From Tricharina praecox (Eukaryota), in the NCBI RefSeq assembly GCF_024521635.1, contig NW_026250440.1:1-64000 (forward strand): a stretch of 64,000 bases of DNA, given 5' to 3'. The translations under genes and the position numbers were made by a program. Below are positions 17,612-54,377 of this stretch, one piece after another (within the stretch, counting starts at the first letter, position 1; each line of letters starts with the position of its first letter). The notes beneath the pieces are model-generated. The model worked only from the letters and a program-made list of their open reading frames with translations. It was not told the DNA's origin and made no database searches.

Positions 17612-18298
17612 TTAGTCGATACCATGCTGTCTCTTCGCCTTTTCTAGGTTCTCTTGACGTCTCTGGAGGTCACCTTCCGCGCGGGCCATCTTCTCGGGCT
17701 GGTGATATAATACTGTTCAGACGAAGAGTAGTCAGCAACCACGATCATCAACGGAGCAAAGAAGATGAGCCGAACTAACCAACGAGGTAGCGATTCTGGA
17801 AATTAAAACCGTTGAGCTTGTCGCAAGCGGTTTTTGCGTCCATTACGTCCTCATAGACGACGAATGCAGTTCCCTTAGTGTTGTTGGCTATGCCTTGGCG
17901 GATTTGTCTACGCGTGAGAGTCAGTCACGGCCCATCTTGTGGAGGAGTTTATGCGTTGCCATTCACCATCCACATCGCGGAGTGGAATGAAAGTCGGGTA
18001 CGTACCGGATAGGACCGAACTTGCCGAAGAGATCAAAGAGTTCCTCGGAAGAGACGTTGTAGCTGTAGACAATTAGCCGTGAGACTCGACGACAATGGAG
18101 GACGTGATCTGCATCGCTACTGAGGGGACGGGACACGACGACGGCAGGATGTATGTGCGACACGCGTATCATCCGAGATGACACAGTGCTTGGATGGCGG
18201 GAAGAGAAGCGCGACAGACGGACAGACGGACAAACGGACCTCAGGTTCTTGACAAAGAGAGCTCTCTGGACTTCGGGCGCAAGTTTGCCCCTGTTCAT
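17612..18298 (-). CDS. sf3b6: Pre-mRNA branch-site protein p14 (SF3B6/SF3B14); exons 18298-18240, 18062-18006, 17907-17780, 17712-17612
   Basis: Spliced [89 protein letters not shown] is the p14 RRM. Confidence 0.96.
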
Positions 18299-43825: not shown

Positions 43826-45433
43826 TCAACGATACCTTAATATAACAACTACGAAAAGCACCCAAGTCCCAAACCACGACCAGTACGTGGTTTTGTACGC
43901 ATACACTATTGCGCCGATGACTCCGCACACAACCGCAAGAACACAGAGCGCCAGCATGCACCAGAGGAAGATACTGCGGCCCCGAGACCATCTCTCGGCT
44001 CTGGCTCGCGATTTGTGCGCCGCTTCGAGCGTGGGGCCGGCGGCCCAGCTGATGCTGCTGATGGGGTTGTTGGGGCTGGGGTTGGGGGTGGGGGTGCGCC
44101 ACCAGTGATACCACTTTGCGGGGCTGGGGGTCGGAGGCGGCGGTGCGGGAGTGGGCTTGTGGACGGGCTTGCGAACAGGCTGGGGAGCGGGCTTGGGGAC
44201 GGTGGTGGGGGGGTTGCAGGAGAGTGTAGCCGCACATGAGGGCTCGGGTGCGAAGGTGCCGTAGAAGCTGGCGTTGGGGTTGCGAGAGAATGGAGTGCTG
44301 GCTGTATTCGTGAGATTATATGTGCTGCCGCCGGCGGTGGCGGCGTTGGTAGGACACTCTGGGCGTGTGGGCGGGACGGAGCCGTGGTTTTTTGTTGTTA
44401 TTGTTGTCGGTCGGTCCCTCTGCCGCCATAAATTGGTGCGCATCCATTCCTCTGAATACGGACCAGAACGCGTCAGTTACTCTAAAGACCGTGCCGCCGC
44501 GGCCGTCCCAGCGCCCACCACGCCAGCCCAACTGTCGCTATCACCGTGACAGCTATCGCCGTCCCCGAAACCACGGTGCCAGTTAGGAACGCACCTAGCA
44601 AGCGCTCTGTGTAGGATGACTCCGCCGCTACTACTACCCCCTCCTCTTCCGAATTGCCCCAACCGTCCCCATACGCCTCCTCGTACTCCTTCATCCTCCG
44701 CACGGACCACAACCCGCTTGCTACCATTCTGCGCCCGTAATCCCTCGGATGTCCGTAATCCCTCGGATGCGCTGTAGCCGGTGCGGCCGGCGGCGTCGGC
44801 GGCGTCAACAGCGGCTGCTGTAACAGCGGCGGCGGCCTTCGCGACTTCGGCTCCTCCTCGGCATAGACGACGACGCCTGGAAACCTCTTCCTTAAGTGGG
44901 TGAGCACGATGCGAAACGCATCTGGCGACAATTTTGCCGTGCCGTTCGGAAAGCCGGCCAGGTTCTCGCGAGCAACCAGCATTGGCGGTTGCAGCCTGAC
45001 ATAGCTCTGTTTTATCTGCGTGGCGGTCGGCTTGCCGGTGATGCGCACTTCGAGGAGGATCCCGTTGTCCGGGTGCGGCTCCGGTGGGCTCCGCTTCAAA
45101 GGCAGGAAGCCTTTGCGCTTTTTTTGGCTGGTAAACTTTTTGGACAGCAGGGTGTTGCCCAGGCTTGTGATCTGCCGGCGGGGGAAATGTCAATTCGGCC
45201 CGTGGTTCTTCCCCGCCGGAAAGAGTTGTGTGCGGAGCGGACGGACGACTCACGATCAGGATCTGGATATTGACCCTCCCGGGCTGCGAGCTGTCCTGCT
45301 TTGCGTCCGGATTCGACAGGACCAGGATCGGGTGCCCGAGGGCTCCATGTTCAGCTTTCGCAATGACCGCACGCGTGTCCTTGTTGTCGGGCAGCCAAAG
45401 GATCGATGCCGGCGCGACTGCGACGTTCTTCAT
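43826..45433 (-). CDS. Fungal hypothetical protein (HPILVLS...ITSLG...PHPDNGILL...SYV family) with C-terminal membrane anchor; exons 45433-45254, 45171-44595, 44451-43826 (or stop at 44482 if the second intron is retained)
   Basis: A phase-0 intron joins ORFs 44477-45433 and 44482-45099. A GTGCGT donor, CTGAC branch point and CAG acceptor join in frame to ORF 43826-44443. Confidence 0.6.
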
Positions 45434-46630
45434 GTTCGAAATATTCCAATGCCCGTCAGGTCAGGTCAGCCGTGACACACCTTCACGACGGGAAGGAGGG
45501 GGGGTGACGAACTTCCTCTTCGTTTGTGCGGAATACGCATCCACTTAAATACTATCTATGCCCAACGCATCCGCCGCGGGCGGTGCTGCGCAACCCAACC
45601 CAACCCAGCCCAACCCAACATGCACGCACTGCCTACATATGCAGCATGCACTGCACTTGTGACGAGCCCTGCCTGAGTGCTCGGCCCACTGCCCGCGCGG
45701 GAAGCAGCGGGCGCCGGGAGCTGCGCATGATGATTGGCTAGTCTGAAACAGTCTGTGGGGCGGGTGGGCGGGGGGCTCAAATCTTGGGGGTGGGACCGTG
45801 GGCCACGACCACTGGGTTAATTCCCCTCCAGAGTATGGTTATTGTTTTGTTTTGTTGCTGCCATAAAACGGCGGAGCACAATATCCCCACATCGGTGGGG
45901 TGATGGTGATGGCGGGATCGGCTTCAAGCGCACATGCGTGTATGCGTGCGCACATCCGTCTGCACAGTGCGCTGGAATGCTGCTGCAGCGCTGCTTGCAT
46001 CCCACCGTCCACGCGAAACACACTCCCAGAGTCCCAGGCAGCCATCTTTCCACGACCGCCAACCAGCCCCGCCTTGGCTCTAATCGCCGGGAAGGGCTCG
46101 AGCAAATCATTCATTCACAATTTCACAAGATATAATATTGTTGGAAGTGGGGTGCTAACTATGGGATCCGGCTCCGGAGCCTGGAAAAAAGCCCAGAGAA
46201 GCCTGCGCGCGATACATACCTACGGTGATATCTCACAGCTATGGTTTGAACTGGTACCAACTGATGCCGCCGCACCCGCCTTTCGCGGGGAGCTACAAAT
46301 CCGTCCAGAGCTCGACTATTGATGGCTATCGTTCGGAATGCCAACTTGCCAATCGGATACCGGAATGTATTTAGCTGAACGAGTCACGAATTATCCTGAT
46401 TGCGGATGCAACTTGCGTCCCGGCATATTCAGCCTTACCACCTGCCCTCCCCGTCGTCGGTCGAGCAAGGTTTTCCGCCGCTTGTATGGTATGGTATATA
46501 ATCCCTCCTATCCCTCTCGTCAGGTCCATCTGACTCTATCCTGCCCCTTCAGACACCATTCACGATCCCAACTCACGTCTACTACAAACACCTCACTCCC
46601 ACCTACCATTACATACCATATATACCAACA

Positions 46631-46936
46631 ATGAAGCTCTCCCTCGTCCCCCTCCTCGCTCTCCTCGCCACCAGCGCCTCTGCGGGTCCCGCCGCCTACG
46701 GCGTATGCCAGGCCGGCTGTGCGTGCGTCGTCATGGCCTGCTACGCGGCCGGCGGAGCCACTTGGGGTATGTACATACCCTACATCCGCGATGCTGCTTG
46801 AAGCCTAATCGTTGTGTGTACCTATGTAGGCGCTACACTAGCACTTACCGCTCCCGCTACCATCATTGGCTGTAACGGGGCCTACGCTACTTGCCAGTCG
46901 GCTTGTGCGCTGGTCGTGTTCGCTCCGACTCTTTGA
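46631..46936 (+). CDS. Small secreted cysteine-rich protein (80 aa); exons 46631-46766, 46830-46936
   Basis: MKLSLVPLLALLATSASA-GPAAYGVCQAGCACVVMACYAAGGATWGATLALTAPATIIGCNGAYATCQSACALVVFAPTL*. Intron GTATGT...CTAAT...TAG. Absent from the ORF track. Confidence 0.88.
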
Positions 46937-48861
46937 GGTGAGAATGGGCCTGGGTACATCTGTGTTTTTTGGTGCTGTGTTGAGGTTTATCACTACCACC
47001 GCTCACCGACTACTTGCGGATGGGTGCGCAAGGGGACGATGGTTAGCTGTATGTACATATGTGGGTGCCAGTGTTGTAGTTGTATGTACATATCTGCCAG
47101 TGTTTGCGGGATGTTTTGGGTTTGCTAGGTAGCATTTCTGTCTATGGATTTGTCAGGAATTGGAATGGCCAAGGGGTCGGCGGGAATCGATATTGTCTTT
47201 TTCAAAAGCATGAAGTAGAGTAAAGCTGGGACAGCATGTAATTACATGGCCTATGTGTGGGCAAAAACGGAGCTGGCGGTTCGATTCGAACCTGAATCCT
47301 CACTCGACACCGGTAGATCCAAGTGCTACTTGTATGTACCACCAAGCAGCAACTATTAGACATCCATCACCAGCCACGAGCAACCGACCTGACTACGGTG
47401 GGTATCACCATATCAAGCCCAGCCAGGCGCAGAAATCGGCCCGGGGCGGAGGCGTTCAAGCGGGGCATCAAGCGGGCCATCCAGCAGGCGCCGGAGGAAG
47501 ACGCAGACCCTGCGCACATCTGAGACTCGATTATAGGTAGGTAGTTGGCAGCGAAGGAATGAGACAAAAATCCGGTGGGCATAGAAGGAACCCCCAAAGA
47601 AACAGCCGGGAGCGGGGGACGATGAGTCAAGCAAGAAGGTGGGTGGATGATTGGAACATGGAACTTGAAATGACGAGTCACGAACCGACCTGGCCTATCG
47701 CACGGCCGGGAATGGGATGGGTACCACCCCGCTCCCCGCATGTGGCTCCACCTAGGTAAAAAGGGAAAGAGAATGACGGTCGGTACCCCGAACCCGAGCC
47801 TGAGCCTGAGCCCGAGCCCGGCGGCGAAGCGCACAGTCGGCACGGGAGAACTTCAAGAAGTACCGGGACGGAGGATACCGGCAGAATGGCCACGGAGCTT
47901 GGGAGTCTGCAGCGGAGACCGCCCCGGAAAAGTCGGCTTGATTAGAGGCTTCCCCACACCACGCTGTGCTCCCATCCAAATCGCTAACCAATGAGCTGGT
48001 CGACTGCAGAACGGACTTAGAGGTGGGAAAGATGTGAAAATAGAGAGGAGAAGGCGAGAAAGAGAGCGAAAGAAGAGGAGGGAAGAGGCGGATATGGAAG
48101 CAACCCATCATCGCTGACGGCGATGTGCTCATGGCCTGCTACAACGGGAGCATACAACTATATACAGTTTTTTGACATTTGACCGGACCCCCGTAGACGC
48201 CGAGTGAGAAGAATGATAATATCAGTTGAAACCGACCCGGTGAGAGGATTTGCATCCACCATGTACTGAGTACGTACCTAACGATTGACCGCCTCCCTGC
48301 ATTGGCGTTTTAGCTGCGTGCGGTATCCGACACTCCTTCCTGCACGGCCGCTGTCGCACGCCTTTCAGCATTCGCGTCTGCATCCCCATCACCACTGACT
48401 CACAGCTGAAATAACCGCCACGGCGGGGGCACGCATGGACCACAGCGTATGCAGAATCAACAGCGGACGAGCCGACGAGGGTAGGTACTAGGCACAGTGA
48501 CAACCGGGTGGAAAAGGATATGCAATCTGTCATGATCCATCAAGGTCGAATGCAATGATGTAACGGGGGAAAAGGATAGGCAGTGAGACAAGCCGTCACG
48601 ACATGATTGGTTCCAACTCCGGTGATACCTATCACTTCGATGCGAATGCTATCACATGCACTCCTAAGTTCCCAACGAGCCGTAACCCTCGGCTATCTGT
48701 TGCAATTGCTTGCTCAATTCTTCGCTCATAAGCGATTGATACGGTCATATTTACAATAATTGACATCACACACACGCGTACAAGAGCCGACAGCTCAACA
48801 TCTTTCCTCGCCCTCTCGCATACAGCCAGAGCAACAATGAAAGACGCAGCCATAGCTTTAT

Positions 48862-49111
48862 TCGCATCAACCGGAGGCAGTGTAATACCGGTGACACAGT
48901 GGGAGTCGACATGCGCAAGCACAGCGGCCAGCTCCCGAACTTCAAAAATAAGATTAATATTAGAACCGATATATTATCGGATTTCAGATATTAAACTGAA
49001 AAGAACAGATACTACACTTGATCTAAGCCAAAAGGCTGTAGAGGGAATATTATTAGTTGATATTCGGGAATGTTGATAGTTAGGGGTGGGGAAGACGTAC
49101 CAAAGAGAGCT
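48862..49111 (-). ncRNA. U2: U2 snRNA gene containing a spliceosomal intron (exon 1 49111-49101, intron 49100-49036, exon 2 49035-~48862)
   Basis: Spliced minus strand AGCTCTCTTTG|CCTTTTGGCTTAGATCAAGTGTAGTATCTGTTCTTTTCAGTTTAATATCTGAAA matches the conserved U2 5' domain, including the GUAGUA branch-pairing site. Stems IIa, IIb and IIc, the Sm site ATTTTTG and stems III/IV are present. Spliced length ~185 nt. Confidence 0.96.
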
Positions 49112-49145
49112 AAAGAGAAAAGAAGAAGAGGGGAGGGAGAAGAGA

Positions 49146-49217
49146 TTTTATAGTTGTTGCAGCAGCACTAGTGAGGACGAAAATTTGGCCGATACGAGGG
49201 CCTAGGGCTTAGGGCTT
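49146..49217 (-). promoter_or_regulatory. U2 promoter: TATAAAA box (49152-49146) and tandem AGCCCTA(A) Tbf1-like sites (49217-49201)
   Basis: TATA box ~35 nt upstream of the inferred U2 5' end; minus strand reads AAGCCCTAAGCCCTAGG. Confidence 0.55.
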
Positions 49218-49704
49218 GATGCCGGTGCAGCAAACCAGAGTGATATCTGTGATGGGTCCCCGTATCTCACCGCAGTCTGCAACACACTTCGCGACCTCTC
49301 ATAATCTATAAACTAATGTACACATCAAAACGAAGCAACTATCAATGACGGGTTAGGGATATGACAGTCGGAAAACGTCTGGTTTTCGCCAACGGCGACG
49401 AAGTTAACGCGCGTGAAGTGTGTGCACTGTAAACCAAAGCTCACTCCGAGTGAAACCAGCGCCGTGCTCGATTCGGTATGTACTCGAAGCCCGCAATCCT
49501 GAGTCTCCTACGTAAACACTGTAGAATACACGCCGCCCGTCACGTATATACGCAGATATCACTCTTCAAGTCCATACCACACTGGCGGGTGGTACTTACC
49601 CTACCAGGACGCTACGCTACGTCACCCCGGCACCGCGTCGCCTGCAACCTCGGCAACCTCCGTCCTCCCGTCCCCGTCCACGTCCACGCCCGACACGACA
49701 CACC

Positions 49705-50168
49705 ATGTTTCCCACGGCCCGCTGTCTCGCGTCCCACCCGCGGAACACACTCCTCAAGAAGCCCTCTCTCGGTTCCTCTCTCTTCCCCCTCCGTGGCCCA
49801 ATTCTACTCTACTAACCCACCCGCCGCCAGCGCTCCTCCCTCCGCTCCAGCTCTACCGCCGGCTCCTCCGAACGCACCGCAAAAAGCTCCCGGCGGACAT
49901 GCGCGTGCTCGGCGACGAGTACGTGCGCGCCGAGTTCCGGCTGCACCGCGATGTCGAGAATCCAGTGCACATCGTCGGGTTCCTGACCGAGTGGCAGCTA
50001 TACGCACAGGCGCTCGAGGGAGATACGTGGAGGGGCGTCAAGTTGGAGAAGGACAAGATCGAGAAGATGAGTGATGAGCAGGTGGGACAGCTCTATGAGC
50101 TCATGAGGAATATACGCGGGTTGGATGAGGGCAGTGGCGAGGGCGGAAAGGGGAGTAGTGGGTTGTAA
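49705..50168 (+). CDS. sdh7: Succinate dehydrogenase assembly factor 3 (SDH7/ACN9, LYR protein); exons 49705-49771, 49831-50168
   Basis: Spliced ...[60 protein letters not shown]...[13 protein letters not shown]. Confidence 0.93.
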
Positions 50169-50313
50169 GTAAGATGGCGGTACTGGGAGGTGCATGATAG
50201 CTTATTGGTGGTGGTGGTGGTGGTGGTGGTGGTGGATTGTTCTTGTAGATATAGAGTCCGTACGATGTCAGGTGTCTAATAGGCATCTACTTACAGCATA
50301 TCCATAACCCATA

Positions 50314-52419
50314 CTATCGCCTCCTGCCCACACCACCGCCGCCTCCGCCGCCAGACTTATCCGCCAGACTGACCACCTCTCCAATGCCAGCTTCTTCCTG
50401 CTCATCCTCCAGCGCCCGAATCTCTTCCCTGCAATCCCACCATTTCTCTTCGGCGATCGCGAACGCGTCCTTCTTCAACTCCTTGACCGTCTTCATCGTG
50501 TTTTTGCCTTCGGCCTCGGCCTGCTCGATGAGCAGCTGTTGCCACTCGTTCGATGTGCGGGCATAGAACTCGCGCAATGACTCGAAGGGTCGCGGGTGAG
50601 GTGCCGGGTCCTCAGCTGCTGGGTGCTCAGGCTCCTCTTGATCCTCTGCTGTAGGAGATTCTGCCGGTACTTCAATCGCCGGGGCGGTTCTGGCCTTCTT
50701 CTGTGTGGTGTCAGCGAGCTGAAATGGAAGGGAGAGATCTGAACCACGAGCCTTTGCCTTCTCGGCACGCCTCTCTTCCAGCTCTGCTTCACTGATCTTG
50801 GGCTTCTTCTCATTCACTTCCTCCTCTTCCTCCTCTTCTTCCTCGCTGTCCTCCTCGTCGTCCTCGTCGTCCTCGTCGTCTTCACTCTCCGAATCGACCC
50901 ATTCGGTCTCTGTCTGCCTGCTGAAGACGGTCCTTACTCCGTCCAGCTTCCCCAGGTCAATCGCAAATAGCTCGTCGTAGGCGATCTCGCGGTCCTCCTT
51001 CTCGAATGTACCACCGTAGATGTACAATACGTCGTCCTGGACGGCGAGTGCACAGTGCATCCTTGGGGTTGGAAGATTTAGGGTCAGTTCGCTCTGTTGC
51101 AGGATCGCAAGCCTTTCCTTCTCCTCATCCGCCTTCTTCCGCTCTTCCTCCTCACGCATTTCTTCCGCCGACTTCCCCGCCTGCTCCGCCTCCAGTCGTG
51201 CAAGATTCTTGAACAGCTCCTCTTCCGCTTCCCTTCCACGGTCTCGCCGGCCGCCTCTTTGCTCCACCATTCTCTTCTGCTGTCTGGCTTTGCGGAGAGC
51301 TAGGGGGAAGAAGCGATTCCGCTCGACACTCCACGCGTACAGCTCGTTGAAGAATATACTATCCAAGCCCTCATCGGTCTCGGCCTTATCGTGGACACCA
51401 CCAAACATTATCCCTCGGCCCTTGTGCGGGGCCATCGTGACACCGACTCTCTTGGGGTTCGGGGCATTCCCGGGCTTCTTCCTCCGTTCCCAGCGGATCT
51501 TTCCCATATCCTCCTGGTCCAGCCTCAGCAGCCAACTATCCTCATGGACATTCCCTATCTCGCTGACGGCCATCTTCCCGCCGCCCTTCTTCTGTGCACT
51601 CGCCACCTTCGTCTTCGAGTACCCACCGAACAGCACAGCGCCCTGCTCATGCGGCAGCAGCGAAAACGAGCTCCTCGCATCGGGGCGCTGCCCATGTGCC
51701 GGCAGCACCACCTGCGTCCACGTATACGACACGACGTTGAACACCCACAAGTCGCCGAGATACTTTGTGCTCGCACTAGTATCCTGGAAGCCGCCCCACA
51801 GTACGACCAGGTTCTTCCAGCCGACCATGCGGTGTCCGCTGCGCGCCGGCGGCGCCTTCCCTTTCACCTCCACTCGCGCCCACTCCCGCGTCTTGCACTC
51901 GAACGACCAGAAGTCGTTGTAGTGGTAGAACGTGTTCTGCTTCGGACTGCTGAACTCCCCGCCAAACAGCCACAGCGTTCCGCCCGCGTGCTGCGTCGCG
52001 CAGACCCAATGCCCGCTGCGCGGCAGCGGCGAGTTCGGGCTGGTGATACACCGCCACGAGCCCGTGGCCGTATTGTAGATGTTGAGATCGTTGAAGAACG
52101 CCGCGAGCGAGCCATTGAAAGTCTCGCCGCCGAAAAGGAACAGCTCGCTGGCGCTGGCGGGCGACGCGGTGAGCGTGGGCCCTGAGCGCAGCGGCGGCGG
52201 CCCGTCGAGGACAGTCTCGGTCACTTTCAGGAACTGCGCTTGCTTGCGCGCGTATTCCTCGAGCACCGCGTCGATGTCTTGGTCCGTCGCATCGATGATC
52301 ACGTCTTTGCCGCCGGCCTTCTTCGAGGACTTCTTCTCCTTCGTCGCCGACTTACGCGCGGTCTTTTCTGCCACCCGCGCTTTCTTGTCGACGGTTTTCT
52401 TCTTGTCTTTTTTCGCCAT
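50314..52419 (-). CDS. kel3: Kelch repeat protein Kel3/KLHDC4 with DUF4110-type C-terminus
   Basis: MAKKDKKK N-terminus, kelch repeats (LFGGEFSSPKQNTFYHYNDFW, PPARSGHRM), C-terminal PHPRPFESLREFYART...WWDCREEIRALEDEQEEAGIGEVV. Confidence 0.92.
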   Translation of the reverse strand: MAKKDKKKTVDKKARVAEKTARKSATKEKKSSKKAGGKDVIIDATDQDIDAVLEEYARKQAQFLKVTETVLDGPPPLRSGPTLTASPASASELFLFGGETFNGSLAAFFNDLNIYNTATGSWRCITSPNSPLPRSGHWVCATQHAGGTLWLFGGEFSSPKQNTFYHYNDFWSFECKTREWARVEVKGKAPPARSGHRMVGWKNLVVLWGGFQDTSASTKYLGDLWVFNVVSYTWTQVVLPAHGQRPDARSSFSLLPHEQGAVLFGGYSKTKVASAQKKGGGKMAVSEIGNVHEDSWLLRLDQEDMGKIRWERRKKPGNAPNPKRVGVTMAPHKGRGIMFGGVHDKAETDEGLDSIFFNELYAWSVERNRFFPLALRKARQQKRMVEQRGGRRDRGREAEEELFKNLARLEAEQAGKSAEEMREEEERKKADEEKERLAILQQSELTLNLPTPRMHCALAVQDDVLYIYGGTFEKEDREIAYDELFAIDLGKLDGVRTVFSRQTETEWVDSESEDDEDDEDDEEDSEEEEEEEEEVNEKKPKISEAELEERRAEKAKARGSDLSLPFQLADTTQKKARTAPAIEVPAESPTAEDQEEPEHPAAEDPAPHPRPFESLREFYARTSNEWQQLLIEQAEAEGKNTMKTVKELKKDAFAIAEEKWWDCREEIRALEDEQEEAGIGEVVSLADKSGGGGGGGVGRRR

Positions 52420-53128
52420 TGTAGGTGGTGGTGGGTGGGTGGGTGGGTAGGTGGTGATGCGCGCTGGCCGTTCGTTGGTGGGGCGGCCCGCCGAAGTGGA
52501 CTTTGGGGGGTAAAAAAATGTGGGGGTGGCAGACGCGGGTAGGCTAGAGCACGTTGGGGAAGGCGCTGTGATCCTTGTTGGCGAGGGGGATGCGTCTTCT
52601 CAGCTCGCACCCGTTCCGGTGCAGGCCTCGATGTCTTTGGGGACGTTCGTATGTAGGTACGGTAGGTATATCTCATCGGTTTATCTGGAGTACACTGCAT
52701 CAAATCATCGTACACTCAAAACTAATTACATAACCGCCACTGCCAGACGAGCCCTGGTCGCTAAGAATACATGAGCTGTCAAGAACATTGTGTCCCCCAG
52801 CACCTACATAGCACCTTCCTACGCTCCCTTCCCCCCCCCCCCCCCCCCCTCCTTCCCAGTCGCCTAGACTTTCCCTGTGCCTGACCAGTCCCTATCCCAT
52901 GTATCTACAATCCCGATTCCTGACGCTGAAGACGGTCGCGGAGTGCGAAATGGATGTGAAAGCCGGAGCCAAGGTCCAAGGTCCACAAAGTTGACACCCT
53001 CCTGTGCCCCTCCACCTCGCAGCGCCCAGCGGTGCACGAACGGCCCGCAGCCCGCTGGTTCGCCGAGTCGGTACCCTCGCTCATATCCGTAACCTCGTAA
53101 AAAGAAAACCCTAAGCCGGCCTCGCTCT

Positions 53129-54377
53129 TCACTGATGGTGGTGCAACTGGTGGTGGTGGTGTTCCGAAGGAGGACACAATCCGGTATCACTGCCGACCTC
53201 GAGCCCGATATCGTCCTCCCAGTAGCTCTCATCATCAGAGCCATACAGTGTCGGGGCACGCACGAGCGCGGGCTGCGGACTGCGCAGGTGACCGCCCTTA
53301 TACTCCAGCGACGTGGCGCGGTACTGCTTCTTCTCCTTCTTCTCGCGGACGAAGACGCGCATGGCCGGGAGGCACGCGGCGATGAATGCGGTCGTCACCT
53401 CGATCTGCGACGCGAGATATAGGATCTCCTTGAACCGCTGGTCGTCCTGCGGGTTGCGGTCCTTGATCGCAGGCCGCAAAGCGAGGATCACGATTATTAG
53501 ACGGAGGATCGCGGCGAGCACGGGGATTGCGCTGATGGTTAGGAAGATTACGACGCCGCAGCGCTCGCGCCGGCCGAGGTGGAGCGTGCGAAGGATCGCG
53601 AGGAATAGGCCGATTACTGGAGGTGTTAGCATTCGAGTGTAAAGGATCGAGATGGATAGGACTTACGGAAGAGATCGGTGGCTATGTTTGCGGCGGCGGT
53701 CTTGGAATGGTTCCATATCTTCTGCTGAGGCGAGCAGTAATCGGTACCCAAAGACCTGCTTTCAATCAGCACAGTTCATGGTTGCAATCGATTCAAGAGA
53801 GTCCCCTTACCATGCACGTTCAATAGGCAGACAGGTCACGAACATCATCAGAGTGATGACCAGGAACGTGACCACCACCAGCGCCGTCAGAACATAGAGC
53901 GCGATCTTGCAGGCGCGGGTCATCTTCTGGCGAAAGTGGAAATATATCGAGAGGAAAGCCGCCTTTATCAGCCACACGATGACGAAATACACAAAACTCT
54001 GCGCATAGAGGAACTATGATTATTGCCAGTCAGCAACCTGCATGCGGGCGGGGACTTATGCACATACAACATACCTTCAGCGTCATGATTTTTGCCTGTG
54101 CCTCTGGGGATGTATTAACGGCAGACGTAGACCGCAATCCCACCGTGTTCTTGAAACTCCTATCGCGGATGAGCTGGGAGTTTTTGACGGTATTCGCAAT
54201 CACGGCGGCCGTCGCAGTGGCCAGCGCAAGACAGAGGAAGAACTCGGTATCGAAGTGGGAGCGAATCTTCTTGCGACTGCGGGTGCAAATGACTATCAAG
54301 CGCAGTCCGCACACCAGATATGTGAGAACCAGACACAGCCAGTCCACCACGATGGTGGTTTCTGGTGATACTGCCAT
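53129..54377 (-). CDS. PTH11-like (fungal rhodopsin-domain) integral membrane protein, 4 exons, no CFEM domain
   Basis: Multiple TM segments, VWLIKAAFLSIYFHF, CLPIERAWS...C, NIATDLF, EVTTAFIAACLPAMR motifs. GT-AG introns near 54074-54015, 53810-53756 and 53666-53617. Confidence 0.85.

Follow-up and report, generated by a model that had tools for sequence, protein, structure and literature searches.

A probable spliceosomal intron near the 5' end of a U2 snRNA gene in the ascomycete Tricharina praecox

The U2 small nuclear RNA (snRNA) gene on the minus strand of contig NW_026250440.1 of Tricharina praecox (RefSeq assembly GCF_024521635.1) appears to be interrupted by a real spliceosomal intron of the GT-AG type, a reading to which we assign a probability of about 0.85, splicing itself being deduced from the arrangement of the DNA. 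The predicted intron (49100-49036; coordinates refer to the window, the whole stretch of 64,000 nucleotides that was analyzed) separates an 11-nt block, the probable 5' end of U2, from the remainder of the gene. A canonical spliceosomal intron at this place had been proposed from the letters of the DNA alone, and that proposal is now supported by a related organism in which both junctions, the donor, the branch motif and the terminal CAG are kept while the interior of the insert has diverged as a spacer would. We regard the comparison with this relative as the deciding evidence, as the window by itself cannot settle whether the gene is interrupted or intronless.

The U2 locus and its two readable 5' ends

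RF00004, the sole Rfam family matched in the 64-kb window, aligned over its entire length (model positions 1-192 of 192) to minus-strand positions 49048-48856 with a score of 152.9 bits (gathering score 46; E-value 1.2e-32). This alignment includes, at high posterior probability, the branch-site-recognition box, the Sm site and stem-loops I, IIa, IIb, III and IV; Table 1 collects their locations with those of the flanking elements described below. The U2 gene is complete and its functional elements are all intact, in agreement with the sequence-only reading, which had described IIa, IIb, the IIc partner, the Sm site, III and IV as such. The extent proposed in that reading needs one adjustment: the 3' end, set at 48862, shifts to approximately 48860, where conservation with the relative stops and where the end of mature U2 is probably better placed than at either 48862 or 48856.

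No open reading frame of at least 120 amino acids overlaps positions 48139-49453, which makes the U2 locus intergenic; the insert accordingly does not belong to a coding gene. The G+C content at the locus is 46-47%, compared with 52-64% in the other 500-nt bins of positions 44000-53999. On the promoter side of U2, the nearest large frame is an open frame of 761 codons on the minus strand (50317-52599), whose product resembles a Kelch-repeat/DUF4110 protein; most of its closest Atlas clusters come from Ascomycota.

Table 1. Elements of the U2 locus and its flanks, in the direction of transcription; positions are those of the window
Feature	Position	Strand	Evidence or remark
Telomere-repeat-like block AGCCCTAAGCCCTAGGCCCT (units AGCCCTAA / GCCCTAG type)	49197..49216	-	Conserved; L002 about 217-246
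GGCCAAA	49190-49184	-	Conserved block, window versus relative
CACTAG	49173-49168	-	Conserved block, window versus relative
Putative TATA box TATAAAA	49146..49152	-	41 nt upstream of the predicted start A49111
Predicted exon 1 AGCTCTCTTTG, 11 nt	49101..49111	-	11/11 identical in L002, L004 and L005; donor directly after
Predicted GT-AG intron, 65 nt	49036..49100	-	Fungal signals; same junctions in relative
Donor GTACGT	49100-49095	-	Sequence
Branch motif ACTAAT	49057-49052	-	Putative branch A at 49053, 17 nt before last intron base
Acceptor CAG	49038-49036	-	Intron end CTACAG 49041-49036; pyrimidine-rich tract precedes
Exon 2 (rest of U2)	48860..49035	-	Rfam, 152.9 bits; conservation with relative stops at 48860
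Remainder of stem I	start of exon 2	-	Part of U2 body
Branch-site-recognition box	49015-49010	-	Rfam alignment
Stem-loop IIa	49001-48982	-	Rfam alignment
Stem-loop IIb	48981-48965	-	Rfam alignment
IIc partner	48962-48954	-	Rfam alignment
Sm site ATTTTTG	48949-48943	-	Rfam alignment
Stem-loop III	48936-48901	-	Rfam alignment
Stem-loop IV	48898-48863	-	Rfam alignment
TTGCTCTGG	48826..48834	-	Invariant; about 26 nt downstream of the U2 3' end; L002 about 627-635

The 11-nt block, the 65-nt insert, its donor GTACGT, its branch motif ACTAAT, its end CTACAG and the upstream TATA box were all recovered at the coordinates that the sequence-only reading had given. As a yardstick for the intron signals we used the fungal consensus in section 3.2 of PMC5832005 (branch RCTRAY, acceptor YAG, branch-to-acceptor spacing of 6-36 nt, donor GTRWGT); the insert conforms to the branch, acceptor and spacing rules, and its donor is off at a single position (C for W). 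The terminal CAG is the first AG downstream of the branch motif. At 65 nt, the insert has a length typical of fungal introns. Elsewhere in the window, too, intron-like segments start with GTACGT, and one of these links two open frames; only 7 of the 56 intron-like segments in the window join two open stretches of at least 60 codons, too few for a consensus specific to this genome.

Exon 1 would represent the 5' end of mature U2, comprising the helix II strand, which pairs with the 3' part of U6, and the first base of upper stem I. The intron would accordingly fall between nucleotides 11 and 12 of the mature RNA, inside stem I, between a G and the first C. A start at A49111 puts 10 nt ahead of the stem I GCC, where the Rfam consensus has 11, and the spliced 5' end finishes in a CUCUUUG-type run, which we take to be like that preceding stem I in the U2 of budding and fission yeast. 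Counted against an interrupted gene is the very short first exon, of 11 nt.

The principal competing explanation, which we consider improbable, dispenses with the intron: transcription would start near 49048, the RNA would begin with ATTCCCTCTA and CAG, and positions 49127-49091 would be a promoter element that happens to mimic a U2 5' end followed by a donor. Within the window this explanation is well served by the Rfam model, whose alignment to the unspliced DNA begins at 49048, contains no gap and includes a regular stem I of standard form. The model thereby reads the last 13 nt of the insert, ATTCCCTCTA plus CAG (49048-49036), as the U2 5' end at model positions 1-12, and by our own count these nucleotides agree at 9 of 12 positions with the 5' consensus of Rfam, surpassing exon 1. 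That likeness to a pyrimidine-rich consensus is explained by the typical composition of an intron 3' end, a pyrimidine tract followed by CAG. The unspliced hairpin is also stable, at -8.5 kcal/mol, versus -7.7 kcal/mol for stem I of the spliced 27-nt 5' end, the fold of which is yeast-like. The sequence-only reading had emphasized that removal of the insert restores stem I; this is true, but because the unspliced DNA folds a stem I as well, we rejected stem I as a discriminator. A comparison with RF00004, suggested in the same place, proved no more selective, in that the unspliced DNA already matches the model end to end and shows no preference for an intron.

Comparison with a metagenomic relative

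Metagenome contigs were scanned with a 23-letter string taken from the U2 body, a pattern neutral with respect to the intron. Five loci were retrieved, three of which (L002, L004 and L005) are U2 genes scoring 137.9 bits with the Rfam model, and all three of these carry the predicted intron. The other two, L001 and L003, were rejected as U2 candidates, having no Rfam match, and L001 is AT-rich, coding-like DNA. The same pattern retrieved no loci from genome contigs and none from viral contigs. L002 and L005 are identical at 1022 of 1023 positions, and L002, L004 and L005 do not differ in the intron or in exon 2; these loci represent one lineage and are counted here as a single comparison, referred to as the relative.

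In the relative, an identical 11-nt exon 1 is followed by GTACGTCTTC and by an insert of 83 nt, compared with 65 nt in the window. This longer insert has GCTAAT 24 nt before its CAG, and the CAG adjoins exon 2 at the same base as in the window. Alignment of the window with L002 gave the following identities by region: 57% in the upstream flank, 11/11 in exon 1, 10/10 in the first 10 intron nucleotides, 39 of 70 columns (56%) with 18 gap columns in the intron interior, 98/100 in nucleotides 1-100 of exon 2, 86% in the rest of exon 2 and 48% in the downstream flank. Similarity detected by BLAST extends from 49127/49129 to 48860, beginning 16-18 nt before exon 1 and not at 49048. On this alignment the interior of the insert diverges like a spacer, and exon 1 forms a conserved island on a par with the U2 body. 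The window and its relative share one and the same spliced 27-nt 5' end; the unspliced 5' ends differ, measuring 29 nt in the window and 35 nt in the relative, and the unspliced stem I of the relative carries a 7-nt insertion or bulge and is weaker, at -5.5 kcal/mol. Junctions and signals that are kept, an interior that drifts and a spliced 5' end that is identical together form the pattern expected of a real intron that was present before the two organisms separated. Alignment of related U2 loci, proposed in the sequence-only reading as a means of dating the intron, thus places the same predicted intron in one related lineage and would make it older than the split between the organism of the window and its metagenomic relative.

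Two further stretches are shared. The first 17-18 bases of the intron are nearly identical in the window and the relative, and GAATATC (49066-49060, minus strand), which precedes the branch motif by a few bases, is present in both introns. Conservation of these stretches may be functional or may merely reflect close relatedness; with one relative, and a close one that also retains the intron start and GAATATC, the conservation of the splicing signals is the outcome of a single comparison.

The flanks add to the comparison. The promoter blocks listed in Table 1 stand out, in the alignment with the related loci, from an upstream flank that is otherwise 57% identical; the telomere-repeat-like run among them, at a distance of about 90-105 nt on the upstream side of exon 1, presumably resembles the Tbf1/Teb1-type sites of snoRNA and ribosomal-protein promoters. 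In the relative, TTAAAAG lies 51 nt upstream of exon 1. Beyond the gene, TTGCTCTGG is invariant despite the low overall identity of the downstream flank (48%), and it may be a signal for 3'-end formation or termination.

Pairing was assessed on the Rfam structure for the window and the relative, where standard pairs occupy 72 of 78 cells (92.3%), compared with 28-50% when the partners were slid. Between these two distinct sequences no pair has changed on both sides, and three of the pairs that differ still pair by virtue of one-sided changes. The fold that RNAalifold itself derives from the two U2 sequences is not the canonical U2 fold.

It is this comparison that tells most heavily against an intronless gene. 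The relative does receive the same kind of Rfam alignment, at 137.9 bits, a point in favor of an intronless gene. However, a 5' end of 29 nt in one organism and 35 nt in the other, with seven nucleotides inserted in stem I, would be unconserved although the next 100 or so nucleotides are identical at 98 of 100 positions. A start near 49048 would also leave the TATA-type element 104 nt upstream in the window and 126 nt upstream in the relative (TTAAAAG), and would leave unexplained why a donor, a branch motif (at 17 and 24 nt, respectively) and a CAG persist when the insert aligns with 18 gap columns. Nor is the arrangement readily produced by chance, for it arose in none of the 200,000 shuffles described below.

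A second explanation, which we rate marginally lower still, accepts the intron signals as real and supposes that the gene is a silent, poorly spliced or decaying copy, mature U2 being supplied by an intronless gene elsewhere. Such an arrangement has a basis in the multiplicity of U2 in some fungi, two loci being predicted in Aspergillus fumigatus (PMC2377427, Table 3). Yet the functional elements of this U2 are all intact, its architecture is kept in a relative with flanks at 48-57% identity and its promoter blocks are conserved, along with 98% of the first part of exon 2 and 86% of the rest. The RNA structure is likewise retained in both organisms, with 92.3% of cells paired and three of the differing pairs maintained by one-sided changes, and a dead gene would not retain conservation of this kind.

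Coincidence, in which random upstream DNA happens to present intron-like signals beside a U2-like 11-mer, has a negligible claim, given that segments of the form GTRNGT..RCTRAY(6-36)..YAG and 40-150 nt in length end at only 43 of 128,000 positions on both strands of the window, and that the configuration recurs at an independent, diverged locus (L002, L004, L005). When the 250 nt that precede exon 2 were shuffled 200,000 times, an intron-like segment ended exactly at the junction in 19 cases, and in none was such a segment also preceded by the 7-mer found there. A second exact copy of AGCTCTCTTTG does occur in the window, on the minus strand at 18253-18263, and is the one observation in favor of chance; it lies in an unrelated, palindromic context (AGAGAGCTCTCT) with no donor after it and no U2 nearby, and is taken as a coincidence.

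Introns in other small RNA genes

The predicted intron belongs with the mRNA-type introns of spliceosomal snRNA genes, a class containing those of Schizosaccharomyces pombe U6 and of Rhodotorula hasegawae U2, U1 and U5. The mRNA-type intron of R. hasegawae U2 (Takahashi et al. 1993, Mol Cell Biol 13:5613) is cited in PMC5855946 and PMC2396436, and in the passages of the former review that list such introns it is the only spliceosomal intron of a U2 gene, alongside those of U6, U5 and U1. Both that gene and the one described here would carry a spliceosomal GT-AG intron within U2, so that production of U2 needs spliceosomes that contain U2; the hosts differ, R. hasegawae being a basidiomycete yeast and the present host an ascomycete. 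The intron of R. hasegawae U2 reportedly lies further downstream, adjoining the branch-site-recognition region, whereas the intron predicted here follows nucleotide 11, in the 5' strand of stem I. Given the different phylum and this reported difference in position, the two are very probably independent insertions. Full-text literature searches, their coverage exclusive of Takahashi et al. 1993 and Canzler et al. 2016, revealed no U2 intron outside R. hasegawae and none in ascomycetes, which agrees, within that coverage, with the earlier statement that no report of an intron at this position is known for a filamentous ascomycete.

Fungal U6 introns (Tani and Ohshima 1989, 1991; Canzler et al. 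2016), as summarized under 'Splicing of U6 snRNA' in PMC5855946, offer a parallel in several respects. As described there, they have canonical donor, branch and acceptor motifs in a core spliceosomal RNA gene and otherwise unconserved sequence, they cluster near parts of the RNA that are close to the active site, and the hypothesis of an origin by reverse splicing applies to them; the predicted U2 intron shares these features. They differ in their setting, in that U6 is a polymerase III transcript with neither an Sm site nor a trimethylguanosine (TMG) cap, whereas the gene considered here is a TATA-driven U2 with an intron 11 nt from the predicted cap.

A closer structural analogy is provided by the introns of fungal U3 snoRNA genes (Myslinski et al. 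1990; Canzler et al. 2017, PMC5832005), which, according to section 3.2 of the latter, interrupt the 5'-most stem-loop of the RNA in the great majority of the Pezizomycotina analyzed. U3 is, like U2, a small, independently transcribed and TMG-capped RNA with a snRNA-type promoter, and its spliceosomal intron is similarly located in the 5'-most stem-loop. For a first exon that is capped and very short, U3 introns represent the best precedent, even though U3 belongs to another RNA family and functions in the processing of pre-rRNA.

Predicted maturation and its consequences

The pathway we envisage begins with a working U2 gene whose transcript would start at or next to A49111 (to within 1-2 nt), about 41 nt below the TATA box. 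RNA polymerase II would produce a capped precursor of roughly 250 nt, from which existing spliceosomes would remove the 65-nt intron, joining the 11-nt exon 1 to exon 2 within the 5' strand of upper stem I. The spliced RNA, about 187 nt long, would then follow the normal course of U2, with assembly of the Sm core on AUUUUUG, hypermethylation of the cap and 3' trimming near 48860, and the locus would thereby serve as a supplier of U2 to the cell. A search for sequencing runs gave 20 entries, none of which contained half of the sampled words, the best fraction being 0.28. If this pathway is true, new U2 can be made only by spliceosomes that already contain U2, and splicing must still act on a capped exon 1 of about 11 nt. 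The same dependence on spliceosomes is known for U6 in fission yeast. A requirement of U2 for its own production would constitute positive feedback, not homeostatic feedback, and autoregulation, raised in the sequence-only reading, is for this reason only a possibility.

Introns in the RNAs that remove introns are rare, and they are the main natural evidence for reverse splicing into RNAs near the spliceosome's active site. The junction predicted here presumably lies no more than about ten nucleotides from the U2 bases paired with the catalytic triad of U6, a position compatible with an origin by reverse splicing, on which we can only speculate. A second, independent U2 case from an ascomycete, at a different place, where the U6-pairing 5' end meets stem I, would add a data point to that argument.

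The locus also bears on how such genes are annotated. In both organisms the Rfam model yields a full-length, seemingly intronless U2 with what would be a wrong 5' end (49048-49036 in the window; 409-427 in L002). The standard model would thus hide introns at this position of U2, and other fungal genomes may contain cases masked in their annotation. In A. fumigatus, U2-1 and U2-2 are predicted at 276 and 277 nt (PMC2377427, Table 3), exceeding the length of a typical U2 by about 85 nt, and the account of these loci in that paper gives a partial alignment only and a size on northern blots that differs from the predicted one. Hidden introns could explain these oversized predictions, a lead that we regard as weak. 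That an intron after nucleotide 11 is an old feature, widespread across a large group of filamentous ascomycetes and overlooked by annotation based on covariance models, is a tentative extension of these findings and on present indications a doubtful one. The interest of the U2 intron would rise if it were found to be widespread in filamentous ascomycetes and masked by model-based annotation: the supply of U2 throughout that group would depend on the activity of the spliceosome, and the exon of about 11 nt would rank among the shortest functional first exons.
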